Positions 31,232-44,616 of a DNA stretch of 64,000 bases are shown one piece after another (the first letter of the stretch is position 1; the number at the start of each line of letters is the position of its first letter). The stretch covers positions 29,788 through 93,787 of the forward strand of contig CALMMC010000125.1 in NCBI GenBank assembly GCA_937868205.1. The letters are read 5' to 3'. The translations under genes and the position numbers were made by a program. The notes under the pieces are model-generated. The model was not told the origin of the DNA and made no database searches. It saw only the letters and a program-made list of their open reading frames with translations. The stretch is from an uncultured bacterium. Its GTDB lineage: Bacteria; Acidobacteriota; Aminicenantia; Aminicenantales; UBA4085.

Positions 31232-32791
31232 ATGGAGAAACCGATCGAGCCGGACCGGGTGTTCCTGGGCGGCGATCTGCAACCCTGGAAAGGGCGCCGT
31301 CTTGACGTCTACTCCCCCATCGATGTCCGAACCCAGGAGGGATTTTCCCCCCTGCGGCTGGGCTCCCTTCCCCGGATGACGGGCCGCGACGCCCTCCGCG
31401 CCCTGGCCGCCGCCCGGAAGGCTTTTTGCGGCGGACGCGGGGCTTGGCCCTCCCTGACTCTCGCCGGCCGCATCCGCCGCCTCGAGGACTTCAGCGCCCG
31501 GCTGGCCGGCCTCAAGGAGCCGGTCGTCCGGACATTAATGTGGGAAATCGCCAAACCCCGGGTCGAGCTCGAGGCCGAGTTCGACCGGACGATCGAATTG
31601 ATCGGCCGATTGATTCAAGCCGCGGTCAAACGGGACCGGGCCTCGCGGTCCCTGATCCGGCAAAAGGGCATCATCGGCCTCGTCTGCGACGAGCCGCGGG
31701 GCGTCGCCCTGTGCGCCGGGCCGTATAATTATCCTCTGTTCGAGACGTTTGGGCTCGTTGTGCCCGCCCTCCTGGCCGGCAACACGGTGATCATCAAGCC
31801 TCCCCGCTTCGGCGTCTTGTTTTTCGATTTCCTTCTCGAGCCTCTCGCGTCCTGCTTCCCTCCGGGCACGGTCCACGTCCTTTCGGGAGACGGGCCGGCC
31901 GTTCTCGATCCCCTCTTGAAAATCGGCGGGATCGACGTCTTCGCCTTCATCGGTTCCAAGGCGGTGGCCGACCGGCTGACCAGCCTGCATCCGAAGCGGA
32001 CGCGCCTGCGGGTCCTCCTCGGCCTGGGCGCCAAGAACGCGGCCGTGATCCTGCCCGACGCCGACCTGGAGACGGCCGTCGGCGAGTGCCTGCTGGGCGC
32101 CCTGGCCTTCAACGGCCAACGCTGCGCGGCCCTGAAGATTCTCTTCGTCCACGAGGCGGTCCGGAAGCCGTTCCTCGACCGCCTTGCTGCGGAAACGGCC
32201 AAAATCAGAATCGGCATGCCCTGGGCGAAAGGCGTCCGCATCACCCCCCTGGCCGACCCTGTCCGGATGTCCTATCTCCGGTCGCTCATCGACGACGCCG
32301 CCGGCCGCGGGGCGGACGTCATCAACGAAAACGGCGGCCGGTCCGCGGGCTCGCTCCTCTGTCCCGCCGTCCTTCAACCGGTCACGCCCCGGATGCGGAT
32401 CTATCGCGAGGAGCAGTTCGGGCCGCTCGTTCCGATCGTCGATTTCCGCCGGATGGAGGAGCCGGTCGACTACCTCCGGGCGTCCTCCTTCGGTCAACAG
32501 GCGAGCGTCTTCGGGACCGACGTCCGGACGCTCGGTCCGCTCATCGACGCCGCCCGCGCCCAGGTCGCCCGGGTCAACCTCAACGCCAAGTGCCAACGCG
32601 GGCCGGATGTCTTTCCCTTCACCGGGAAGAAAGATTCGGCCCGGGGGGATTTCTCGGTTTCGGAAATTTTTGGATTCTTCGCCGACCGGACCGTCGTCGC
32701 CGCCAGGGACGACGGCCGAGGGGCGGCCCTCCTCAAGCGGTATCGGGCGGTCTCCGGGCGGAGCGGATCCGGAGAAAGGATCGTCTCATGA
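31232..32791 (+). CDS. aldehyde dehydrogenase family protein, GapN-like (non-phosphorylating glyceraldehyde-3-phosphate dehydrogenase-like)
   Basis: 519-aa ORF from the ATG at 31232 (an in-frame GTG at 31109 with a GGGAGA SD is an alternative start). Catalytic-Cys region ALAFNGQRCAALK and C-terminal CQRGPDVFPFTGKKDSARG resemble GapN. Its stop overlaps the next start (ATGA). Confidence 0.8.
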   Translation: MEKPIEPDRVFLGGDLQPWKGRRLDVYSPIDVRTQEGFSPLRLGSLPRMTGRDALRALAAARKAFCGGRGAWPSLTLAGRIRRLEDFSARLAGLKEPVVRTLMWEIAKPRVELEAEFDRTIELIGRLIQAAVKRDRASRSLIRQKGIIGLVCDEPRGVALCAGPYNYPLFETFGLVVPALLAGNTVIIKPPRFGVLFFDFLLEPLASCFPPGTVHVLSGDGPAVLDPLLKIGGIDVFAFIGSKAVADRLTSLHPKRTRLRVLLGLGAKNAAVILPDADLETAVGECLLGALAFNGQRCAALKILFVHEAVRKPFLDRLAAETAKIRIGMPWAKGVRITPLADPVRMSYLRSLIDDAAGRGADVINENGGRSAGSLLCPAVLQPVTPRMRIYREEQFGPLVPIVDFRRMEEPVDYLRASSFGQQASVFGTDVRTLGPLIDAARAQVARVNLNAKCQRGPDVFPFTGKKDSARGDFSVSEIFGFFADRTVVAARDDGRGAALLKRYRAVSGRSGSGERIVS

Positions 32792-35700
32792 GCCCGACGA
32801 ACGCCCATTCCCTCCGGACGGGCGGGTCCGACCCCGTTCTCCCCCCTCCGGCCCGGACGCTGATCGAGCTGGTCCGGGAATCCTACGGAACGCACCTCCG
32901 CATCCGCAATTTTTTGGAGGATTACCACCGGACCGGGCGGAAAGAGGCCGCCCGGGCCGAGGACTGGCGGCGGATCAGCCTCGAGGATTTTCACGTTTTC
33001 GACGCCCATCCCCGGGGGCGGGAAGCCCATGAAATCGTCGTCGACCTGTTTTTCGAGATGATCGAGCCGTCGCAAGAAGAGGACGTCCGGGAGAAAAGCC
33101 TCGCCGGGTTGTTCGAGTATCTCCGCAAGATCATGAACGACAGCGGGCCGAACCTCGACCGCAATCTTCCCCTCGTCGACCGGGCTTTCAACCGGGTTCT
33201 TTCCGCCGTTCCGGACGGAGACGGCCTCCTGAAAAAGTCGGCCCGGGACATGAAGCTGATCCTGGGAACCTGCCTCGAGAGGAACCTTCCCCTTTCGCAC
33301 GGAGCGTATCAAAGCTTGGCCGGCCGGGCGTTCCGGTCGTCCTTCGATTACTGGCTCGCCCAACCCGATCCGGAGGAAGGATTCATTCCCTTCAAGGCCG
33401 AGGACGGAGACGGAGCGGACCGGGATCTTTATTTGAGCCTGGTCGAGCCGCTGAGCCGGAAACGGCTCCGGGAATGGAAAAGCCTGGTCGACGCCTGCGA
33501 CGGCGGCTCGGAGCCCGGCGACTGGGCCGGGTTTTCCGGCCTCCTCGAATGGCCGGATTACTACCAAATCGCCAAGGGGTATTTGAAAATCGCCGACGAA
33601 ATCGAGAAAGCGTCCTTCTCGGACGGCCGCCGGCACGAAATCCGACTCCTGTACCTTTTCCGGATCATTTCCGTCCCCGGATTCCGGGACATCCACCGCG
33701 AAGCCCTGATCGAGATCAACCGTTCCCTGGGCCGGGTGTTCGCCGGTCTTCCTCCCGACAAGCGGGAGCCGATGATCTCCCTGCTGTTCCAGACGTTCCG
33801 GGAGAGCGCCGCCCGGGCCGCGTATCCCGACACCATGATGAGCTGCCTCAGCACGGCGGCCCGGGAAGTCTTCAAGCTCGACCGCCATCCCGAGGTCAAG
33901 GTCCTGCTCGACGAGATCATCCGGTTCGGTTTCGTCGGCCCCGGCATCCGCGGGGCGACCACCGACTGGGAAGTGAAATTCAACCCTCTCCACGTCAAGA
34001 ACATCCGGGCCTGGATCGAAATCATCGCCCTCAAGCCCCGCTGGACCAAGCCTCTGCTGTCGGCCTTGATCGCCCATCTGAAAATCGGCGGGGTCTTCGT
34101 CCGCGACGCCGACCTCCTCCAGAAGGACATTTCCGCCCTTCTCAACGCCGACATCACCCCGGCCCACAACCTGGTTCTTCAATTGGCCCGCCTCTTCCCG
34201 GTGTATTTCAACGACATCAACGCCGGCGGCGAGCTCCGGGATAATACGACCCGCCTGGACGCCCTCTGCTTTCGGGAGGATCCGCTCATCCACTTCATCC
34301 GGAAACAGACTCACGTGGAGTGCAACAGCACGCTTGTCCCCTTCTGCGAAGCCGTCCTGGAATATTGGGCGGCGGGCCGAAAGGAAGGAATGAAGCCGTT
34401 CCTCCCGGCGGAGATCTACGACGCGCTCCAGCCCTCCGGGCCATTCTACGACGGCCTTCACCGGGTGATGGCCGGAGTGTCGCGGGAGGCCGGCGGCGAT
34501 CTCCGGGAAACGCTCGCCTGGGACCAGATGAAAATCCTCAAAACCGTCCGGGAAATCCCGGACGTTCCCGAGCCGGACAAGGAGAAGGCGGCCCTGTTCC
34601 TCCGTCTCTATCAGCTCCTCCACCGCAAGTATTTCGTCCAGCATCAGGACGTCCTCAAGGATCTCGACGCCTCCTTCTTGTTCGACCGCCGGAAAATCGA
34701 CATTTTGAAGCGGGCCTTGGCCCGGCAAACGCCCGGCCCGGCCCTGGCGGTTCTCCTGGAATTCCTCGAGATCCTGAAGGACCGCTTCCTCTCCCCCAAA
34801 AAGACCGAGGCGCTGGAGGATCTCTACGAAAAGCGGCACATCGCCGTCGGGATCCCGTCCGTCTACGGCACCTACCGCGAGGAGAAATTCGACGCCCTCC
34901 GTCTCTACCTCAAGCTCCAAAGCCTGGCCGACGTCCAGCTCGAGCACGCCCTCGCCCCGGTGAATCTCCGCTTCATCACCCGGAGCACGCTGGTCGAAAT
35001 CCACCGCTTCCTCGTGATCTTTCTGAAGGTCCTCGCCTTGGAGGGGATCGCGACCGAGGGCCTGACGTCCAAGGTCCGTCTCCTCGAAGGAGCCCTCAAG
35101 GCTCCGCGGTTCAGCATGGCCCAATACACCGACATCTTCCAATTCATCTCCAAGGGCGTCCAAGACGTCATCCACGTTTATTTCATCGACGCCCACCGGG
35201 CCCGACTGCCGCTCGTCATCCGTCAGGTCCTGGCCGCTCTCCCCCAAGAGGAACGCCCCAGTCCGGACAAGGAAGAGGAGGAGATCTACATCCGGACCGA
35301 AAACTTCATCCGCTCGCTGATCGCCTCGTCCTTCGGCCTGCAGACGATCGACAATTTCGTCAGCACCATCCTCCGGACGCTCTGCGCCGAGGAGGAGAAA
35401 TTCAAGGACCAAGCGCATCTCCGCAACGTCCTGATGAGCTACGATCCCGGGGCCGCCGTCGTCCCGATCGGGGAAAAAATGGGTCCCCGGGACGACCAAA
35501 TCCTCCTCGGAAACAAGGGATATTTCCTGAAAAAATTGCACTCCTTCGGATTTCCCGTCCCCCCGGGATTCATCCTGACGACGGAAGTCTTCCGCTGCAA
35601 AGAAGCCATCCGGAGCGACCGGAACATCGGCCGGGACCTCGACCAGCGCATCGACCGGCAATTAAGAATTCTCGAACAGACCGCCCGCAAGAAGCTGGGG

Positions 35701-36987
35701 GATCCCCATAATCCTCTCCTTCTTTCGGTCCGGAGCGGATCGGCGATCTCCGCTCCCGGGATGATGACGTCGTTTCTCAATGTGGGCCTCAACGATCAAA
35801 TCGCCGAGGCTCTGGCCGCCCGCCCCAGGTACGCCTGGGCCGCCTGGGACTGTTACCGCCGGTTTCTCCAGTTCTGGGGCATGTCGGAGGGCATGGACCG
35901 GGACTTCTTCGACGACACCATCGACCAGTTCAAGGCCGATCTCGGGATCGTCAAGAAATTCGATTTCACGCCGGAACAGATGCGGGACATCGCCTTCGCC
36001 TACCGGAAGGGTCTGAGCCAAAGCGGAATCACCCTCCCGGATAATCCCCGGGAGCAATTGGACAAGGCCTTTTTCAAGGTGATCGAATCCTGGGATTCTC
36101 CCCGGGCCGAGATCTACCGGGCGGAGATGAACATCTCCAGCGACTGGGGCACGGCCGTCATCGTCCAGGCCATGGTGTACGGCAACTTAAACAGCGATTC
36201 CGGGACGGGGGTCATCTTCACCCGGGAACCCAAGGGGCTGACGAGCTCCGTTTCCCTGTTCGGCGACTTCACCCACGGCGCCCAAGGGGACGATATCGTC
36301 ACCGGCTTGGTTGAAACCTACCCCATTTCCGAAACGCAGCGAATCAGCGAAGGACGGGACGAGCCGATCTCCCTGGAATCCCAGTTTCCGGCGGTCTACG
36401 GCGAGCTCAAGCGCCTGGCCGAAACCCTGGTCTATGAAAAGGGATTCGAGCACCAGGAGATCGAATTCACCTTCGAAAGCGCGACGAAAGAGGGGCTCTA
36501 CATCCTTCAGACGCGCGATCTGCCGCCGCCGGAACCCGCCCGGGTGAAGGTCTTCACCCGGACCGAAAAGCTCGAAAAATCCCGCCTCGGCAACGGAATC
36601 GGCATCAGCGGGGGGGCCTTGTGCGGCCGGGCCGTTTTCTCGGAGGCCGACATCGAGGAATTCAGCCGACAGGATCCAAACGTCCCCCTGATCTTGATCC
36701 GGCCGGACACGGTTCCCGACGACATCGGCCTGCTGCGGGGAGTCGAAGGCCTCCTGACGGCCAAAGGCGGCAGCACCTCGCACGCCGCGGTGATTATCCC
36801 CCAGCTCAAGAAAGTCGGCGTTGTCGGGCTCCGGAGCCTGAAGGTCGATGAAAAAAGCGGAACGGGGACGATCCACGACGCCGTCATCCGCCGCGGCGAT
36901 TTCCTCAGCCTGGACGGCTGGAGCGGAGCCGTCTATCGCGGCCGCCACCGGATCGAACCGGAGCCGGCCGTTCCGGCCAAGGTCTGA
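32788..36987 (+). CDS. 1399-aa multidomain protein: ~890-aa uncharacterised helical N-terminal region fused to a PEP-synthase/PPDK-type ATP-grasp nucleotide-binding domain and a PEP-utilising phosphohistidine swivel domain (no PEP/pyruvate TIM-barrel domain)
   Basis: Continuous 4.2-kb ORF; GGAGAAAGGA SD 7 nt upstream. The PPDK_N-like region starts around 35470 (LLGNKGYFLKKL...GFPVPPGFILTTE). The mobile-domain motif GGSTSHAAVI has its His codon at 36781-36783. Confidence 0.8.
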   Translation: MSPTNAHSLRTGGSDPVLPPPARTLIELVRESYGTHLRIRNFLEDYHRTGRKEAARAEDWRRISLEDFHVFDAHPRGREAHEIVVDLFFEMIEPSQEEDVREKSLAGLFEYLRKIMNDSGPNLDRNLPLVDRAFNRVLSAVPDGDGLLKKSARDMKLILGTCLERNLPLSHGAYQSLAGRAFRSSFDYWLAQPDPEEGFIPFKAEDGDGADRDLYLSLVEPLSRKRLREWKSLVDACDGGSEPGDWAGFSGLLEWPDYYQIAKGYLKIADEIEKASFSDGRRHEIRLLYLFRIISVPGFRDIHREALIEINRSLGRVFAGLPPDKREPMISLLFQTFRESAARAAYPDTMMSCLSTAAREVFKLDRHPEVKVLLDEIIRFGFVGPGIRGATTDWEVKFNPLHVKNIRAWIEIIALKPRWTKPLLSALIAHLKIGGVFVRDADLLQKDISALLNADITPAHNLVLQLARLFPVYFNDINAGGELRDNTTRLDALCFREDPLIHFIRKQTHVECNSTLVPFCEAVLEYWAAGRKEGMKPFLPAEIYDALQPSGPFYDGLHRVMAGVSREAGGDLRETLAWDQMKILKTVREIPDVPEPDKEKAALFLRLYQLLHRKYFVQHQDVLKDLDASFLFDRRKIDILKRALARQTPGPALAVLLEFLEILKDRFLSPKKTEALEDLYEKRHIAVGIPSVYGTYREEKFDALRLYLKLQSLADVQLEHALAPVNLRFITRSTLVEIHRFLVIFLKVLALEGIATEGLTSKVRLLEGALKAPRFSMAQYTDIFQFISKGVQDVIHVYFIDAHRARLPLVIRQVLAALPQEERPSPDKEEEEIYIRTENFIRSLIASSFGLQTIDNFVSTILRTLCAEEEKFKDQAHLRNVLMSYDPGAAVVPIGEKMGPRDDQILLGNKGYFLKKLHSFGFPVPPGFILTTEVFRCKEAIRSDRNIGRDLDQRIDRQLRILEQTARKKLGDPHNPLLLSVRSGSAISAPGMMTSFLNVGLNDQIAEALAARPRYAWAAWDCYRRFLQFWGMSEGMDRDFFDDTIDQFKADLGIVKKFDFTPEQMRDIAFAYRKGLSQSGITLPDNPREQLDKAFFKVIESWDSPRAEIYRAEMNISSDWGTAVIVQAMVYGNLNSDSGTGVIFTREPKGLTSSVSLFGDFTHGAQGDDIVTGLVETYPISETQRISEGRDEPISLESQFPAVYGELKRLAETLVYEKGFEHQEIEFTFESATKEGLYILQTRDLPPPEPARVKVFTRTEKLEKSRLGNGIGISGGALCGRAVFSEADIEEFSRQDPNVPLILIRPDTVPDDIGLLRGVEGLLTAKGGSTSHAAVIIPQLKKVGVVGLRSLKVDEKSGTGTIHDAVIRRGDFLSLDGWSGAVYRGRHRIEPEPAVPAKV

Positions 36988-37011: not shown

Positions 37012-38283
37012 TTACTTCAATGACTGCTGGATGTGGACGGCCAGGTCGCCCATCCGGTTCGTGTAGCTCCCGTATTCATTGTCATACCAGCCGAAGACTT
37101 TGGCGTGGACGACCGGGATCTCCAGGCGCTTGACGGGAAAAGCGGCCCGGGTTTCCGGCGGTAGGGCGGAGATCTGCGACACGTCGATGTCGATGAAGGC
37201 GGTCCGGGTGTGATTGAACTGACCCTCGATGACGACCGAGGCGTCGACGCCGGCCACGTCGGCCGAGACGTTCTGCTCCTCGGAGAACACCAGGCGCCGT
37301 TCCGGGTCGCGGGCCGCGGCCTGCCGGTAGATCTCGTTGATCGCCCGGGCGTCGATCGCCGGGACGCCGGCGTCTCCGGGATTTTGGAACGTGACGTTCA
37401 GGATGATGATCGATTCCGTCTTCATCGGGATGCGGATGGAATCGGCCATGAAGCCGATGGCTTTCACCTCGGGAACGGCCAGGGCCAGGGCCTCGGCCGC
37501 GTTGGTCGACGTCAGGATGATGTTGTCGAGGACGGAGCGCGATTTTCTCAGGTCCTTCGCCCCGGCCTTGGGGACGTTGTCCAGGACGCTCTGCGAATTC
37601 GTGGCCGCGTGGACCGTTGAGGCCGAGGCGGTCAGGATCGCCCGAGTCTTTTCGTGGTCGACGAGGGGCTTGATCATATGGGCGAGGGCGGTCGTCGTGC
37701 AGGAGGCGGCCGAGACGAGGGAATGCCGGTCCGGATCGAAAGCCCGGTGATTGATGCCGTAGATCAGGGTCACGGCGTCCTCGGGCATGGGCAGGGCCCG
37801 GTTCTTGAGCTTGAAGGCCGCCGAGGCGAGGACGACCCGGGCGCCGCCCTGCAAATGGCCGCGGAGCGATCCCTTGGCCGCGTCCGGTTCCGCCGTCGGA
37901 TCCAGGAACTGTCCGGTGCAATCGGCCACCACATCCACGCCGTAATCGCGCCATGGGATGTCCTTGGGATTCCGGTCCTTCCGCAGAACCGTCACCGGGA
38001 TCCCGTCGATCAGAAGCTTGCCTTCCTTTTCATCGACGATCTGGATCCGGGGCTCGGCGTTGATCCCGTAAAGAAACGTATGCATGCGGCCGTAGGTTGA
38101 ATCTTTTTCGATCGTCTGGACGACGGCGTCCATCCCGGCGCCGATTTCCCGGCCCTGGCTGACGACGATCTCCTTGAAATACTTCCGCCCGACATGATGC
38201 CACAGGGTGAGCTTGCCGATCCTCCCCAGGCTGTTGATGCCCAGAACCGGTTTTTTTTCCGAGAACAAAGCAGACGCCTTCAT
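37012..38283 (-). CDS. glyceraldehyde-3-phosphate dehydrogenase family protein (divergent, extended to 423 aa)
   Basis: N-terminal NAD motif INSLGRIGK, catalytic ASCTTTALAH (GAPDH has SCTTNCLAP), and C-terminal WYDNEYGSYTNR. GAGGAG SD 8 nt upstream. Confidence 0.75.
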   Translation of the reverse strand: MKASALFSEKKPVLGINSLGRIGKLTLWHHVGRKYFKEIVVSQGREIGAGMDAVVQTIEKDSTYGRMHTFLYGINAEPRIQIVDEKEGKLLIDGIPVTVLRKDRNPKDIPWRDYGVDVVADCTGQFLDPTAEPDAAKGSLRGHLQGGARVVLASAAFKLKNRALPMPEDAVTLIYGINHRAFDPDRHSLVSAASCTTTALAHMIKPLVDHEKTRAILTASASTVHAATNSQSVLDNVPKAGAKDLRKSRSVLDNIILTSTNAAEALALAVPEVKAIGFMADSIRIPMKTESIIILNVTFQNPGDAGVPAIDARAINEIYRQAAARDPERRLVFSEEQNVSADVAGVDASVVIEGQFNHTRTAFIDIDVSQISALPPETRAAFPVKRLEIPVVHAKVFGWYDNEYGSYTNRMGDLAVHIQQSLK

Positions 38284-38590: not shown

Positions 38591-39418
38591 TCACCGGCGT
38601 CCGGATGTTCCGCCGACCGAGGCGACGATGAAATCCGCCAACCGCTCGAGATAAATCCGGCCTTTTTCCGCGGACGCCTTTCGGGGGTCGCCCAGAACAC
38701 CGTCGGCGGAAAGCGCGGGCATGCCTTTTTCCAGCAGAAGCCTCATCTCGGCCCCGCCGAACGGCCCGCAATACCCGGGAGCAAACCGCTCGGACGCGAC
38801 CAGCCCGCCCTCCAAAGTCATCATCATCGAGGTTTCGTTCTCGCCGGCGTGGTCTCCGGCCTCCGTTTTGGAGACGCCGTATTCGGCCGATAGGCGGCCG
38901 AGGAAGTCCGTCAAGCCGGGCAAGTCCAGGAACGCCGTGACGTCGATCCCGGGGTGAGCCTTCCGGGCCTCGGCTGCAAACCGCCCCACGGTTTCGAAAT
39001 TTCCGCCATGCATCGGAATGAAGAGGATGCGCTTGAAGCCGTGGCGGACGAGACTGGCCGTATAATCTCGAAGGATCAGCCGCAGCGTCTCGGGCTTGAG
39101 GGAAATCGTCCCGGCGAAAGCGAGGTGATGATCCGACAGTCCGGTCTCGATCGTCCGTGCTTGAAGCGCGCCGCCCAGCTTGCGGGCGACGAGCTCGGCC
39201 AGGGCGTCGCTGATCCGCGCATCGGTCATAGTCGGCAGATGGGGTCCGTGCTGTTCGATCGAACCCACGCCGACGACCGCGGTCGTGCAGCCCGATTCGA
39301 TCGCCTTCTTGATGTCCGGCCAATTCATCCGCTCCATGCGGACGGTTTCCGCGGCCCGGACGGCCGGGGAAAAGCACAAACAGAGAACCATCGGAACAAC
39401 CCTCAAGCCTCGTTTCAT
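38591..39418 (-). CDS. creatininase-family (creatinine amidohydrolase-like) protein with N-terminal signal peptide
   Basis: Start trimmed to MKRGLRVV (GGAGGAGGAAGA SD). Signal peptide; GSIEQHGPHLP and FIPMHGGN metal-binding motifs. 275 aa. Confidence 0.75.
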   Translation of the reverse strand: MKRGLRVVPMVLCLCFSPAVRAAETVRMERMNWPDIKKAIESGCTTAVVGVGSIEQHGPHLPTMTDARISDALAELVARKLGGALQARTIETGLSDHHLAFAGTISLKPETLRLILRDYTASLVRHGFKRILFIPMHGGNFETVGRFAAEARKAHPGIDVTAFLDLPGLTDFLGRLSAEYGVSKTEAGDHAGENETSMMMTLEGGLVASERFAPGYCGPFGGAEMRLLLEKGMPALSADGVLGDPRKASAEKGRIYLERLADFIVASVGGTSGRR

Positions 39419-39667
39419 GATCTTCCTCCTCCCGGATGCCGGTGCGGGCTTGAAACCCGGGATATCAACCCGGGCCGGGGGCGCGCGCCGGCCCGGAAAC
39501 GCCCTTCGTCCCGCGGCGCGCGTCCCGTCTCTCACCCGTTCCTTGAGCGCCGGCAAGCTCCCGTCCTCCCCGCCCTTGCGGGACGGCGGCCGTCGTCCGG
39601 GCGGACACAGGATAAATCCGGCGGAAAAGCGATGTCAAGAAACCGCCTTGTCCGCCCCAGCGGGCGC

Positions 39668-40888
39668 TCAGCGCGAAAAAACGATCCGGCCCCGGCTGAT
39701 GACCGTCCGCACGACGGCCGTTTCCCGGAGGGGATCGGCGCTGAAAATCACCACGTCGGCGTCCTTGCCCGCCTCCAGCGAACCGATCCGGCCGTCGACG
39801 GAGAAGATCTCGGCCGCGTTGAGCGTCAGAGCCCGCCAGGCCTCCTCCTCGGGAAGGCCGTGGGCGACGGCCAGGCGGGCGATCTCCAGCAGCGCGTCCG
39901 GCCGGCGCCCGGAATTTCCCTGAAAGGCGATCTTGACGCCGGCCCGCTGAAGGCGGACGGCGCTTTCCAGCGAATCGGCCGCCGACTCCGGCGTGCTCCG
40001 AAAGTCGGCCAGCGGGCCGACCAGGACGGGGATCTTTCGTTCGGCCAGCTCGGAAGCCGCCCGAAAAGCCGCGGCGCCGTGATTGATGACGAGGCGGAGG
40101 CCGAACTCGTCCGCCAAGCGGACGGCCGTCAGGATGTCGTCCAAGCGGTTGGCCCGCACGACCAGGGGCATTTCCCCTTTCAGCATCGGCCCGAGCGATT
40201 CGACGGCCGCGGCCGCCGCCCGGTCCGGTCCGGTCTTGCTCTCCATGGCCTGCCGGGCGTCCAGGAGAGTCTGGCGCAGCAAGGCCATCGCGCCCATGCG
40301 GGTCGAGGGATACTGGTTGCGGCTTCCAAAACGGAGCTTGGCCGCTTCCCCCAGGTTGGCGTGGACCGCAGCCGGAAAGCGCAGCGTCTCGCCGCTCCCG
40401 GAGGAGTGTCCGGGAAGGCGGACCAAGGCGCTTTGGCCGCTCAGAAGCGCGCCCTCGCCGGGGGCCGAGAGGGCGGAGGTGACGCCTTCGGAGCACGCGG
40501 CCGGGAAGTCTTCATTTTCCCAGTCGATGGCGTCGATGACGCGCAATTGCGGGAGAACGGCCTTGGCCGACTCGTCATAGTCGCCGCCGCCGGCTTCCGG
40601 CCGTTCCATCCCCAGGTGAGTGAAAGCGTCGATCAAGCCGGGGGTGATGACCGCCCCGGCGGCCTCGATGACCTCGGCGCCGGGCGGAACAGCCACGTCC
40701 CGGCCGACGGCCTCGAGGCGTCCGCCGCGGATGAGCAGGACGCCGTTTTCGATCACGCCGCCGCTGACGGTGATGATCCGGCCGCCGCGGACGGCCAGAA
40801 GCGGATCGGCCTCCCCTCCGCCGGCCGGGCGAACGAACAGAAAGGCCAGGACCGCCGCCGCCCAAAGAACGGTATTTCTCTTTTTCAT
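39668..40888 (-). CDS. secreted amidohydrolase-superfamily protein (non-canonical THLG in place of the HxH metal motif)
   Basis: 406-aa ORF; signal peptide. A paralogue of the C-terminal half of the 40908-43436 product (shared TRMGxMALLR, LRLADEF motifs). GGAAGGA SD. Confidence 0.75.
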   Translation of the reverse strand: MKKRNTVLWAAAVLAFLFVRPAGGGEADPLLAVRGGRIITVSGGVIENGVLLIRGGRLEAVGRDVAVPPGAEVIEAAGAVITPGLIDAFTHLGMERPEAGGGDYDESAKAVLPQLRVIDAIDWENEDFPAACSEGVTSALSAPGEGALLSGQSALVRLPGHSSGSGETLRFPAAVHANLGEAAKLRFGSRNQYPSTRMGAMALLRQTLLDARQAMESKTGPDRAAAAAVESLGPMLKGEMPLVVRANRLDDILTAVRLADEFGLRLVINHGAAAFRAASELAERKIPVLVGPLADFRSTPESAADSLESAVRLQRAGVKIAFQGNSGRRPDALLEIARLAVAHGLPEEEAWRALTLNAAEIFSVDGRIGSLEAGKDADVVIFSADPLRETAVVRTVISRGRIVFSR

Positions 40889-40907
40889 GGCCGCGTCCTT
40901 CCGGGGT

Positions 40908-43436
40908 TCACCGCCGGTCCGGCTGAGCGCGGGCCTCCAGCCGGCCGTCGATGAAAACCGCCTCCGGGATGGCGCCGGTCAGGAACGGATGACCGCGCAG
41001 AATGACGATGTCGGCATCCTTTCCGGCCTCCAGGCTTCCGACCCGCTTGGCGAGGCCGGCGATGCGCGCCGGCTCGATGGTCACGGCCTTGAGCGCCTCC
41101 TCCTCGGTCAGGCCGCCGCGGTAGGCGAACGCGGCCAGCGTCAACGGTTCGCCGCCGGGCTGCCCGGCCGCGGGCGTCCGCCATGAACCCTCGTCCGGAC
41201 GGAAGGCCACGGTCACGCCGGCCCGGATGAGGATGACGGCGTTGTCTTCGTTGAATCCCCGGTCCTCCACCTGGCCCAAGCCTCGGAACAGTCCCTCCAG
41301 AACGACAGGAATGCCGCGCTTCCGGATCTCGTCGACCACTTTGTAGGCGTCGGTGGCCCCGTCGAGGATGATCTTCAACTGAAATTCATCGGCCAGGCGC
41401 AGAGCCGCCAGGATGTCGTCGCGGCGCTCGGCGTGGATCATGACCGGCATCTCTCCGCGCAGCACCGGCTGCAGGGCGTCCAGGGCCAGGTCCGCGGCCG
41501 GAGTTTCATTCTTTTTATCCCGGGCGGCCCGGTCCCGCTTTTCGCCGTATTCCCTCGCCTTGACCAGCGTCTCGCGCAACAGGGCCATGATCCCCATGCG
41601 GGTCGTGGGCATCTCCCCCTCCCGCCGGGCGTTCGCCCCGAGGCCGAACATCATGACCGCCCGATCCTTGATGATCATCCGGTCGACGACCGCTCCACAG
41701 CTCTTGATCGCCGTCCCCTGCCCGCCGATGACGTTGAGGTTGCCGGGGGTCACGAGCAGCGAAGTGATGCCGTCCCCGCGGAGGAACGAGAAAAGCGGGG
41801 CCTGCGGCTCGATGGAATTTTTCACCTCCAGCTCGGGCACGACCGGCTGGGACGTTTCATTGACATAGCTCTGACGTTTCCAGTTGTCGGAGATTCCGGC
41901 GTGGGACCGCGGCGAGACCAGGCCGGGCATGACCACCCGGTCGCCGGCCTCGATCACCGGCCAGCCCTCCGGGACGGCGACGTCGCGGCCGATCTTTTCG
42001 ATCCGCCCGTCTTTCACCAGGATGACGGCGTCGCGCAGCGGCTCCCCGGCCAGGGTGAAGACCGTTCCGGCCCGGATGGCGAACGCCCCGGCCGCGCCGA
42101 GGTTCTCCGGCAGATCCAGGGGACGGGCGGCCAGGGGGGCCGCGGTCAATCCGGCCAGGGGTTTCAGGCTTTCGTTCCGGTATTCAACACGGCCGTCGAT
42201 GATCACCTGGGTGATGCGGGTGGTCAAGGCCAGCGGCTCGCCGTCGTAGAGCACAAGGTCGGCGTCCTTGCCGGGCTCGAGGCTGCCGATCCGCCCGTCC
42301 AGTCCGGCGGCCCGGGCGCCGTTCAGGGTGATCGCTTTCAGCGCATCCGCTTCCTTCATGCCGCGGCGGACGCACAGGACGGCCAGTTGGAGAAGATTCT
42401 GCTGGCCGCCGCCCAAGGCGTCGGTTTGGAGAGAGACGTCCAGCCCGGCCTCGGCCAGGATAGCCGCCGTGTTATGGAAGACATGGGGATTGTCAAAATA
42501 CCCAAAGAGCATCGGCGGGCCGACGTTGAAGGCGACATCCTTGTATTCCTTGAGTTCGTCCACCACAAGATAGACCCAATAGCAATGGGCCAGGGTCAGC
42601 CTCAGGTTGAATTCCCGGGCCAGGCGGATGCAGCTCATGGCCTCCGCGGCCGTGGCGCAGTGCATGTGGACGGGGATTTCCCGCCGGAGGGCTTTCAACA
42701 CCGTCTCCTTGCCGAGCTCCCGCTTCGGAGCCGCGGCCGCCTTTCCCGCCTTCTTCTCCTTCTCGAACTTCTCCCAGGCGGCCTCGTATTCCCGCGCCTC
42801 GACGAACGCCTTGCGGGCTAAATGGTAAACGGCCATCAGCGTGGCGGGCATCTGTTTGCGCGGCCCGTAGACGCCGATGGGATTCCCTTCGATGGCCATT
42901 TTCAGGCAGTTGTCTTCCTGGAGGACCATGCGATCGGGCCGGTCGTCTTTCAGCTTCACCGAAACGCCGGTCCCGCCGATGACGTTGCCGCTTCCCGGGA
43001 GAGCCACGATCGTCGTCACCCCTCCGGCCCGGGCCACGGGAATGGCCGGATCCTCGAAGTTGAACGAATCCAGGGCCCGCACCTGCGGGGTGAGGGGATT
43101 GGTCATTTCATTTCCGTCACTGTTCTCTTCCACCGAGGGCACGGAATAGACGCCGACGTGGGAATGAATATCCACCAGCCCCGGGGTGACCGCCCAGGCC
43201 TGGACGACGGGCGTTCCCGGAGGCGGGACGATCTCCGTTCCGACGGCGGCGATCTTTCCGTCCCGGATGAGGACGGCCCCGTTTTCCACGACGGCTCCGC
43301 TGATCGTATAAATTTTCTTTGCCCGGATCATCAGGGTTTCCCCCGACGCTTGAACCGCGAAAAAAACAAGGGCACCGGCCAGTAACAATCCGACGGTCGA
43401 TTTACGCACGGACATCTCCTTTCTCAAGGTTTTCAT
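40908..43436 (-). CDS. secreted tandem-domain amidohydrolase (N-terminal domain with canonical HxH: DIHSHVG; C-terminal domain degenerate: RSHAG)
   Basis: 842-aa ORF; signal peptide; two amidohydrolase-like halves. The start may be M1 (43436) or M8 (43415). Confidence 0.75.
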   Translation of the reverse strand: MKTLRKEMSVRKSTVGLLLAGALVFFAVQASGETLMIRAKKIYTISGAVVENGAVLIRDGKIAAVGTEIVPPPGTPVVQAWAVTPGLVDIHSHVGVYSVPSVEENSDGNEMTNPLTPQVRALDSFNFEDPAIPVARAGGVTTIVALPGSGNVIGGTGVSVKLKDDRPDRMVLQEDNCLKMAIEGNPIGVYGPRKQMPATLMAVYHLARKAFVEAREYEAAWEKFEKEKKAGKAAAAPKRELGKETVLKALRREIPVHMHCATAAEAMSCIRLAREFNLRLTLAHCYWVYLVVDELKEYKDVAFNVGPPMLFGYFDNPHVFHNTAAILAEAGLDVSLQTDALGGGQQNLLQLAVLCVRRGMKEADALKAITLNGARAAGLDGRIGSLEPGKDADLVLYDGEPLALTTRITQVIIDGRVEYRNESLKPLAGLTAAPLAARPLDLPENLGAAGAFAIRAGTVFTLAGEPLRDAVILVKDGRIEKIGRDVAVPEGWPVIEAGDRVVMPGLVSPRSHAGISDNWKRQSYVNETSQPVVPELEVKNSIEPQAPLFSFLRGDGITSLLVTPGNLNVIGGQGTAIKSCGAVVDRMIIKDRAVMMFGLGANARREGEMPTTRMGIMALLRETLVKAREYGEKRDRAARDKKNETPAADLALDALQPVLRGEMPVMIHAERRDDILAALRLADEFQLKIILDGATDAYKVVDEIRKRGIPVVLEGLFRGLGQVEDRGFNEDNAVILIRAGVTVAFRPDEGSWRTPAAGQPGGEPLTLAAFAYRGGLTEEEALKAVTIEPARIAGLAKRVGSLEAGKDADIVILRGHPFLTGAIPEAVFIDGRLEARAQPDRR

Positions 43437-43764
43437 TATTCAAATCGGACACCCCGTCGCGAGATATCCTAGATATGATATTTTAGCACGGGTTCTCTTG
43501 TTTCCGAACCGGACATGGTTTCGATTCTTCAGTCTCGTCAGCATTACGCCGGCGACAGGGCGCCTCCGGTCGTTCCGCGGAGCGGAGAACATCACCGATC
43601 GGACAGGCCCCCGCGGGAAAAGGGAAACGATCAACCGGGCCGGCCGCCGGATGTTATCTAGCGCCTCAACCCGGATGCGCGCGGCGAGTCGCGCCGACCC
43701 GGGTTGGAACTCCAGGAGCAAAAGCATCGACGGCCTTTGTCGTATCAGCGGTCCGCGGCCTCCA

Positions 43765-44616
43765 TCACCTCGCCGGGCGCGAAGTCGGGGAGCCTCGGTC
43801 GTTTATCCCTCGCAGGAAGAGGACCGAGAAGATCAGCCCGACGCCGGAGAGGGCCAGCATGATCGGAACCGCGCCGGCCGACGCCGAGGGGTCGTGGAGA
43901 CGCCCGAAAGCCTGATCGACGGCGATGCCGGCGGTCTCGATCGTCAACATGATCACCATCATTCCGGAGATCGGATAACCCCACGCGCGCCGGCGCCAGA
44001 GCCAAGCGGCGCCGACCGCCAGCATCGGGAAGGTGAAAGCGAAGTCCAATACGTAGATCGCATTCTGGGCAAGCCCGGCGCCCTCGAAACTCTCCGGCAT
44101 GGTGTTGTGGATCATCGCCGGAACGATGTCCTGGAGCCAAACGAAGCCGAAGACGATCAGGCAAATCATCATATAGACCGCGATCGTCCGCCCGGGGACG
44201 CCTGAACCGGCCGCCTGGACCGCGGCGAGATCGAAGCTCGCCAGGAGAGTCAGCAGCGCCCAAAAGGACAGGCCGAGCAAGGCGGCGAAAAGAAGGAAAA
44301 ACGAGTTGAAATGCACCATGAAGCAGAACAGCACGGCATTGTAGGCGATGTAGGCGAGGGATCCCAGCCAGACAAAGCGGGCGCGCAGCGAGCCGCGGGC
44401 CGTCAGGATCATCGAGACGATGAGAACGGGCCCCGCGAGGACCAGCATGGACAGGGCCGTCCCCCTCATGTTCCCAATGATGAAGGGCGCGTCCCGGCGG
44501 AAGACACCCCAGAAATAAAACGACGCCGACGAGGCGATGACGGCCGCGGCCGCTAAGACGGCGGACACGCGGTAGGGAGTCCGCGGATGGATTCCGAGAT
44601 CGATCCGGTCGGCCAT
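43765..44616 (-). CDS. polytopic integral membrane protein (hypothetical)
   Basis: 283-aa ORF with about 8 hydrophobic helices. Confidence 0.45.
   Translation of the reverse strand: MADRIDLGIHPRTPYRVSAVLAAAAVIASSASFYFWGVFRRDAPFIIGNMRGTALSMLVLAGPVLIVSMILTARGSLRARFVWLGSLAYIAYNAVLFCFMVHFNSFFLLFAALLGLSFWALLTLLASFDLAAVQAAGSGVPGRTIAVYMMICLIVFGFVWLQDIVPAMIHNTMPESFEGAGLAQNAIYVLDFAFTFPMLAVGAAWLWRRRAWGYPISGMMVIMLTIETAGIAVDQAFGRLHDPSASAGAVPIMLALSGVGLIFSVLFLRGINDRGSPTSRPAR

Follow-up and report, generated by a model that had tools for sequence, protein, structure and literature searches.

How many working enzymes do two adjacent amidohydrolase genes encode, when only one of the three barrels that they specify has an intact metal site? 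The question is raised by a stretch of 64,000 nucleotides (hereafter the window; assembly GCA_937868205.1, contig CALMMC010000125.1, positions 29,788 to 93,787) from an uncultured bacterium of the Aminicenantales, in which three open reading frames (ORFs), here called genes A, B and C, are co-oriented on the minus strand in the 38.5-43.5 kb part. The reading that we favour, with moderate confidence, is that A and B form a single hetero-domain enzyme related to the protein of structure 3OOQ, which is exported by the Sec route and probably periplasmic. Only the N-terminal domain of A (AN) would be catalytic, the C-terminal domain of A (AC) and the protein B being pseudo-enzyme partners. The genes and domains are the following.

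40908..43436, minus strand: gene A, a two-domain amidohydrolase, 842 amino acids as an ORF from ATG, 833 from the probable true start GTG 43409
42162..43340, minus strand: domain AN, residues 33-425 of A, the catalytically competent barrel
40929..42089, minus strand: domain AC, residues 450-836 of A, a degenerate barrel
39668..40888, minus strand: gene B, 406 amino acids, a stand-alone degenerate amidohydrolase paralogue
38591..39418, minus strand: gene C, creatininase family (PF02633), 275 amino acids; the ORF as first listed is 38591..39556

A preliminary description of this DNA had placed three minus-strand ORFs here, and all three are found at their positions. It had also made secreted members of the amidohydrolase superfamily of all three products; the superfamily is right for A and B; C is a member of the creatininase family, outside the triosephosphate isomerase (TIM)-barrel amidohydrolase superfamily. 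No further paralogue of A, B or C was found elsewhere in the window.

Metal ligands of the three barrels

Pfam detects two Amidohydro_1/Amidohydro_3 stretches in A and one in B; against PF01979 and PF07969, A scores 113.1 and 92.1 bits and B 54.0 and 50.5 bits (cutoffs 25 and 29.7). Both proteins belong to the amidohydrolase superfamily by these scores and by their fold, a distorted (beta/alpha)8 barrel with a beta-sandwich. Within the superfamily, they are members of the 3OOQ-like subgroup, both by full-length sequence (E 2.7e-67 for A, E 2.9e-56 for residues 49-405 of B) and by fold, the Foldseek template-modelling (TM) score to 3OOQ being 0.90 for A and 0.88 for B, and at most 0.63 to everything else (the Foldseek probability is 1.00 for 3OOQ, 3N2C, 3MTW, 1ONX and others). 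3OOQ, an uncharacterised structural-genomics entry from Thermotoga maritima MSB8, is the only close solved structure. The motifs located after strands 1 and 5 are common to it and to A and B; it is a single domain of 396 amino acids, which keeps all the ligands and is devoid of dead partner domains, and it gives no substrate. Ten chains were deposited and a docking benchmark paper lists the entry under dihedral symmetry, so that 3OOQ looks like a homo-oligomer.

The pairwise identity between AN, AC and B is 32-36%, and B is nearest to AC (36%, versus 32% to AN), which agrees with the statement of the preliminary description that B most resembles the degenerate second domain of A. The motifs quoted there are all found in the translations, as DIHSHVG, SPRSHAG and AFTHLG. 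Residue-level alignments to 3OOQ, whose ligands are HxH, K, H, H and D, give the following equivalences.

AN: strand 1 H91-x-H93; strand 4 K179; strand 5 H259; strand 6 H284; strand 8 D339
AC: strand 1 R510-x-H512; strand 4 M595; strand 5 H668; strand 6 G693 (preceded by D692); strand 8 D748
B: strand 1 F89-x-H91; strand 4 H176; strand 5 R245; strand 6 H270; strand 8 N325

AN has the complete binuclear site of subtype I (HxH, Lys, His, His, Asp), and each of its six ligands is kept in 119-120 of 120 A orthologues (about 840 amino acids long, 57-96% identical). AC does not have this set of six ligands, nor does B. In the AC columns of the 120 orthologues, R510, H668 and G693 are present in 120/120 and M595 in 117/120; position 512 is mostly Tyr, and position 748 varies (R/A/S/Q/D). 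In an alignment of 50 sequences, R510, H668, E670, R671, D673, D674 and G693 of AC are invariant, and D692 is nearly so. As for the B family (121 sequences), the ligand positions are mostly occupied by F, N/D, H, R/T/S/A, H/G and G, with 90 N, 14 D and 11 H at position 91, 61 H and 41 G at position 270, and 111 G at position 325, while H176, N247 and R248 are nearly invariant. Across their orthologue families, AC and B each lack at least three of the six ligands.

The AlphaFold2 (AF2) model of A (842 amino acids) has a predicted local distance difference test score (pLDDT) of 89.3 and a predicted TM score (pTM) of 0.88, which implies, at the level of the model, a defined and fixed interface between AN and AC; the pLDDT of the model of B is 86.4. 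The models put the ligand-equivalent residues at the ends of strands 1, 4, 5, 6 and 8. Based on the alignments to 3OOQ, the orthologue columns and these strand positions, AN has a canonical subtype-I binuclear site, which AC and B are unable to form: the catalytic site is intact in AN and degenerate in AC and B. The preliminary description had seen in A a tandem amidohydrolase with a canonical HxH in the first domain and a degenerate one in the second; the alignment, the 120-member sets and the predicted secondary structure agree. AC and B do not keep all metal ligands, so its pseudo-enzyme idea is supported, as is its view of the three paralogous domains as a duplication-fusion series.

Live and dead domains across genomes

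Do the degenerate barrels matter to the organism? AC and B could be decaying relics of recent duplications, without function, in which case the locus would hold one ordinary enzyme plus junk. The ratio of nonsynonymous to synonymous substitution rates (dN/dS), computed between the window and a sister species (locus L026, whose B is 89% identical), is 0.046 for AN, 0.115 for AC, 0.213 for B, 0.156 for C and 0.046 for rpoA. The values of AC and B are above that of AN, and the orthologues of B have diverged further (43-51% identity) than those of A (57-65%), which speaks for this reading. However, the ratios are well below 1, many residues of AC and B are invariant in the family alignments and the predicted signal peptides are kept; both reading frames are intact and B is adjacent to A in at least three phyla; the models are confident and well folded, and the layout of a live domain plus dead ones recurs in 105 divergent clusters (see below). 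The relic hypothesis is largely refuted by these observations, and we give it very little credit. The dN/dS values of AC and B, their invariant residues and the retained signal-like N-termini argue that the two are maintained under purifying selection and are not decaying, as far as sequence comparison can tell.

Wherever the A orthologue is at least 55% identical and the sequence extends far enough past it, the next gene downstream is B. Such loci come from Aminicenantes, Acidobacteriota and Gemmatimonadota, and their B orthologues are 41-48% identical. A stand-alone B gene is missing from the distant Planctomycetota locus L015, whose A is 34% identical. The full gene order (rpsD, rpoA, rplQ, a gene for a 283-aa protein, A, B, C, a GAPDH-like gene and a PPDK-like gene) is shared by the sister species only. 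As regards conservation of the neighbourhood, the adjacency of A and B is kept in all qualifying loci, while C, among the loci compared, adjoins the pair in the sister species only. The conserved unit is A plus B.

The combination of live and dead domains extends beyond these loci. Representatives of clusters at 50% identity were searched exhaustively, which gave 1,688 proteins at E of 1e-30 or better; the best 149 of them were split into domains, in which five reliably aligned ligand columns (HHKHH) were read. Two or three full-length domains are present in 121 of these proteins: 105 of them contain a single HHKHH domain, 16 are without any, and not one has two or more. The live domain is the middle one in all of the 42 three-domain proteins that have one live domain; in two-domain proteins, it comes first in 45 cases and second in 18. 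Pfam finds three amidohydrolase stretches in proteins of 1,300-1,500 amino acids, and the named members come from Planctomycetota and Armatimonadota. The family as a whole has members in Aminicenantes, Acidobacteriota, Gemmatimonadota, Planctomycetota, Armatimonadota and Deltaproteobacteria, all of them annotated only as 'amidohydrolase family protein'.

The identity is 41% between live domains, 29% between dead domains and 26% between live and dead ones, and the nearest neighbour taken from another protein is of the same class (live or dead) in 327 of 334 cases. The dead domains split into two types, upstream and downstream, relative to the live domain. AC and B are both of the downstream type and are each other's closest group (37%), which makes B a duplicate of an AC-like domain. 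We had considered that the three-domain fusions consist of B fused to A, and rejected the idea since their N-terminal dead domain is of the other subtype than B. The assignment of the fusion domains to AN, AC or B with three family hidden Markov models and BLAST was also given up: the B profile, being the most general, won nearly everywhere, and ligand signatures and the identity matrix were used instead.

The live-dead pair also exists in an unfused form. In a deltaproteobacterium (L029; GCA_016192705.1, JACPTQ010000021.1, 6001..8546), a 442-aa gene, whose product has all the ligands, shares its last 4 nt with the beginning of a 406-aa gene, whose product has none; the AN-AC fusion therefore joins partners that elsewhere are made as separate, translationally coupled proteins. 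An M49 peptidase is encoded 3 kb upstream of this unfused pair.

A different explanation for the conservation of AC and B is that they are functional in their own right, as ligand-binding or catalytic modules with a non-canonical site (metal-independent or with another metal geometry), devoted for example to substrate capture, product binding or a second activity. It would account for the invariant polar residues at the catalytic strand ends of AC (R510, H668 and, nearly so, D692) and for the nearly invariant H176, N247 and R248 of B, and it is consistent with the purifying selection on both and with the fact that the lineages of dead domains are ancient and distinct. On the contrary, ligand-equivalent positions vary in the B family (245 R/T/S/A; 270 H/G; 91 N/D/H), as does the strand-8 position in AC; the dead domains are less alike than the catalytic ones (29% versus 41% identity), and the strict rule of one intact site suggests that the other domains serve the live one. 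We find this explanation unlikely.

Export, mode of action and relatives of the A-B enzyme

The translation of gene A most likely starts at GTG 43409, because AGGAG sits 6 nt upstream of this codon and both a 96%-identical homologue (P0001) and the sister-species gene calls are of 833 amino acids. The signal peptides are predicted as follows.

43347..43409, minus strand: predicted signal peptide of A, (M)RKSTVGLLLAGALVFFAVQA, cut before SG
40817..40888, minus strand: predicted signal peptide of B, MKKRNTVLWAAAVLAFLFVRPAGG

Signal-like N-termini were judged with a heuristic based on hydrophobicity and charge, and by eye. A, B and C are all positive for Sec-type N-termini, in agreement with the signal peptides that had been described on all three proteins. 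The N-terminus of A has a positive n-region, a hydrophobic core and a VQA cleavage motif, and the AF2 model shows an N-terminal helix that spans residues 3-29. The heuristic finds a signal-like N-terminus in 105 of the 120 A orthologues and in 108 of 120 B orthologues, versus 2 of 97 leaderless control proteins.

We propose the following mode of action for the A-B enzyme. After Sec export, AN would bind two divalent metals, K179 being expected to be carboxylated, and would most likely hydrolyse an amide bond of a peptide-derived substrate: a dipeptide, a C-terminal residue or an N-acyl amino acid. AC and B would be ancient pseudo-enzyme paralogues of the downstream subtype, which have lost metal binding and have been kept by selection. 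AC, in the same chain, and B, as a separate subunit, would pack against AN as fixed partners, in the places that are taken by identical subunits in homo-oligomeric relatives; they may help shape the substrate pocket. The domains, the state of their ligands and its conservation, the linkage of the two genes, the signal-like N-termini and a confident model of both domains of A are what the data show; the physical association of A with B, the metal content, the class of substrate and the role of the dead domains are what we infer from them.

Regarding the substrate, our best guess, and a weak one, is a peptide or an amide that is cleaved by a periplasmic hydrolase. It is based on the next structural matches after 3OOQ, which are prolidases, the Arg/Lys carboxypeptidase Cc2672, imidazolonepropionase and isoaspartyl dipeptidase, and on neighbours of A-B that recur, although they are variable: S9, S49 and M14 peptidases, TonB-dependent outer-membrane proteins, amino-acid permeases, Asp/Glu racemases and a class-IV aminotransferase. 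Cc2672 (3MTW), the prolidase Sgx9260b (3N2C/3FEQ) and the members of NF051886 (cog1228) are of the same superfamily as A and B and have the same type of binuclear HxH/K/H/H/D site. The cog1228 enzymes that were studied in the Raushel laboratory are reportedly exported and act on peptide C-termini. However, the cog1228 peptidases are distant from A and B (TM 0.47-0.61, 15-22% identity), and they are single-domain homo-oligomers in which every subunit is active. NF051886 is among the top NCBIfam matches, with 94.4 bits for A and 67.7 bits for B, far below its equivalog cutoff of 500.

Dead amidohydrolase barrels that are kept as structural or regulatory partners have been described: PyrC' in the aspartate transcarbamoylase of Pseudomonas, the DHOase-like domain of yeast Ura2, and CRMP/DRP. 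The principle is the one that we propose for AC and B, in that the metal ligands are lost and the barrel is retained. However, these dead barrels have unrelated enzymes as partners, or roles that are not enzymatic, whereas the partner of AC and B would be a live paralogue of the same family; dead barrels of the present kind are predicted to be exported, and there are one or two of them per live domain, in a fixed order. Kinases and a few metabolic complexes offer familiar cases of dead paralogues in the service of a live enzyme. In the literature, which we covered incompletely, we found no account of assemblies of live and dead paralogues in the amidohydrolase superfamily, including bacterial exported ones.

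The evidence points to a widespread family in which proteins of two or three barrels retain exactly one active site. Tentatively, and with somewhat less assurance than for the window itself, we extend the hypothesis to the whole family: the 3OOQ-like amidohydrolases may include a large exported class in which one live barrel is combined with one or two ancient dead barrels of the upstream or downstream type, as fusions or as coupled genes, the dead barrels being obligatory partners in completing the assembly or the substrate pocket of the one active site. A-B would be the form that consists of a live-dead fusion and a free dead subunit. If the dead domains are obligatory partners, the expression of single domains of such enzymes would likely fail, and automated annotation over-counts active hydrolases. 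Split genes, the two-domain fusion, the fusion with a free subunit and the three-domain fusion would then make up a natural series for the shift from homo- to hetero-oligomers with division of labour. The substrate may matter for peptide turnover in sediment bacteria.

Several observations weigh against the hypothesis of a single A-B enzyme. The export of A and B was called with a heuristic. The case for binding between A and B is indirect, being made of their adjacency, the fused and split forms of the live-dead pair and the pTM of 0.88 for AN-AC. The conserved polar residues of AC (R510, H668 and D692) could form a working ligand-binding or catalytic site. Among the multi-domain representatives, 16/121 are without a complete HHKHH signature; these may be alignment errors or proteins made wholly of dead domains. 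The three-domain fusions are dead-live-dead and, their N-terminal dead subtype being different from B, they are not simple fusions of B and A. No NCBIfam equivalog cutoff is reached by A, B or C, and no characterised enzyme is close to A or B. Last, the neighbouring genes vary widely, which weakens the deduction of a substrate.

Gene C and the surroundings of the pair

Gene C matches the Pfam family Creatininase (PF02633) with 211.5 bits (cutoff 31.3, E 1.5e-62) over profile positions 1-236 of 238, and the family motifs E-Q-H-G-P-H-L-P and H-G-G-N are visible. It shares the full-length match and the motifs with creatininase, MftE, ArfB and IolN, but is below every equivalog cutoff (137.9 versus 172 for MftE TIGR03964, 94.7 versus 235 for creatininase TIGR04448). 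The closest structure, 3NO4, is uncharacterised, and C is distant from all solved members. The 321-aa ORF that begins with TTG is an over-extension: ATG 39418, which is preceded by GGAGGAGG, gives a protein of 275 amino acids. Its N-terminus, MKRGLRVVPMVLCLCFSPAVRA before AE, is signal-peptide-like, unlike that of 97 of its 120 closest homologues, which are about 252 amino acids long and have no leader. Among the 23 longer homologues, 19 have a hydrophobic signal or lipoprotein leader, and the leaders that were inspected end in a lipobox-like Cys.

Does C belong to the same system as A and B? The preliminary description had proposed a pathway of all three genes for a cyclic amide, a lactam or a peptide, driven by one promoter; in such an operon for multi-step periplasmic degradation, the creatininase would open the ring and the amidohydrolases would process the product. 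The promoter-like sequences are the following.

43480..43488, minus strand: TGcTAAAAT, a motif resembling an extended -10 element, which precedes ATG 43436 by 44 nt and GTG 43409 by 71 nt
39609..39638, minus strand: TTGACA-18-TATCCT, promoter-like site in the spacer between B and C

The stop of A and the start of B are separated by 19 nt, within which lies a GGAAGGA ribosome-binding site; the spacer between B and C is 249 nt. The TTGACA-18-TATCCT site matches the consensus at 10/12 positions and is conserved in the sister species, in which the remainder of the spacer differs by a 32-nt indel and numerous substitutions. Judging from this site, C is probably transcribed from a promoter of its own, and a single promoter for all three genes is unlikely given a 249-nt spacer that holds a conserved promoter-like site of its own. 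The TGcTAAAAT motif, which was said to drive the cluster, is present at 43488..43480 and identical in the sister species; it lies inside a stretch of about 95 nt that is invariant as a whole, so that its conservation says little. A consensus promoter scan did not report it, for want of a -35 hexamer.

The idea of one operon has several points in its favour: A, B and C are adjacent and co-oriented, their three products look exported, and the gene order is the same in the sister species; exported creatininase homologues adjoin a different, cog1228-type amidohydrolase in other Aminicenantes, and in one A-B locus the place of C is taken by an FmdA_AmdA amidase. However, a tblastn search found no creatininase homologue in 18 related A loci (L001-L018), and none is next to A-B in the gene tables of L023-L025, so the creatininase does not belong to a conserved three-gene unit. 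The co-orientation is uninformative, since rpoA and rplQ through to the GAPDH-like gene are all on one strand. The leaderless majority of the close creatininase homologues (97/120) is apparently cytoplasmic, and the conserved promoter-like site of C also argues against a common transcript. We consider the one-operon pathway quite improbable, and the substrates suggested for it remain speculation. We propose instead that C is a separately transcribed exported enzyme, which is adjacent to A-B only in this lineage.

In L020 (7001..11527) and L021 (7001..13095), an exported creatininase homologue of the lipoprotein type precedes a Cc2672-like amidohydrolase, in which a DAHTH motif is kept. The genes further on are for an M28 peptidase in L020, and for an MR_MLE enzyme, an SSF transporter and another creatininase paralogue in L021. 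Exported enzymes of the creatininase family may have a loose thematic connection with exported amidohydrolases, although none that is specific to A-B.

The genes that surround A, B and C in the window include the following.

32788..36987, plus strand: protein of 1399 amino acids with C-terminal PPDK_N and PEP-utilizers domains and about 900 unannotated N-terminal amino acids; convergent with the cluster
37012..38283, minus strand: GAPDH-like protein of 423 amino acids, about 90 longer than a typical type-I GAPDH
43765..44616, minus strand: hydrophobic, apparently multi-pass membrane protein of 283 amino acids, between rplQ and A

We considered PPDK_N proteins as a conserved neighbour of the pair, since they flank A-B in Gemmatimonadota (L007-L009) and one is encoded near the cluster in the window; with a BLASTP E of 0.14, the proteins are not detectably related, and the recurrence was set aside as a coincidence. 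The GAPDH-like protein scores 276 bits against TIGR01534 (cutoff 367), and its dN/dS versus the sister species is 0.034, a very strong constraint. The 283-aa membrane protein has no Pfam or NCBIfam match; it is encoded at the same place in the sister species, and its dN/dS (0.317) is the highest in the region. No tRNA was found in the window.

In other genomes, the surroundings of A-B are sometimes richer in related genes. Locus L024 (GCA_040961635.1, JBFOMZ010000023.1, 1048..16523) carries, in this order, a TonB-dependent-like outer-membrane protein, an S9 peptidase, A, B, a second two-domain paralogue of A, an S9 peptidase and a third two-domain paralogue of A; this array is a local expansion tied to peptidases. 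In L001 (3750..7890), three tandem Asp/Glu racemase paralogues and an extra amidohydrolase of 413 amino acids lie directly upstream of A-B, and the racemases hint at the metabolism of peptides with D-amino acids. A 413-aa amidohydrolase is also found upstream in L013 (6445..9855), where the other upstream ORFs are unannotated and similar in size to those of L001.

Last, we note that the close homologues of A and B are labelled Candidatus Aminicenantes, and that the contig of L003 (CAYPKX010000058.1) is 100% identical to the window. L003, L005, L017 and L018 are records of metagenome-assembled genomes with A orthologues that bear the title 'uncultured Eubacteriales bacterium'; their nearest named relatives are all Aminicenantes or Acidobacteriota, so that these titles look mislabelled.

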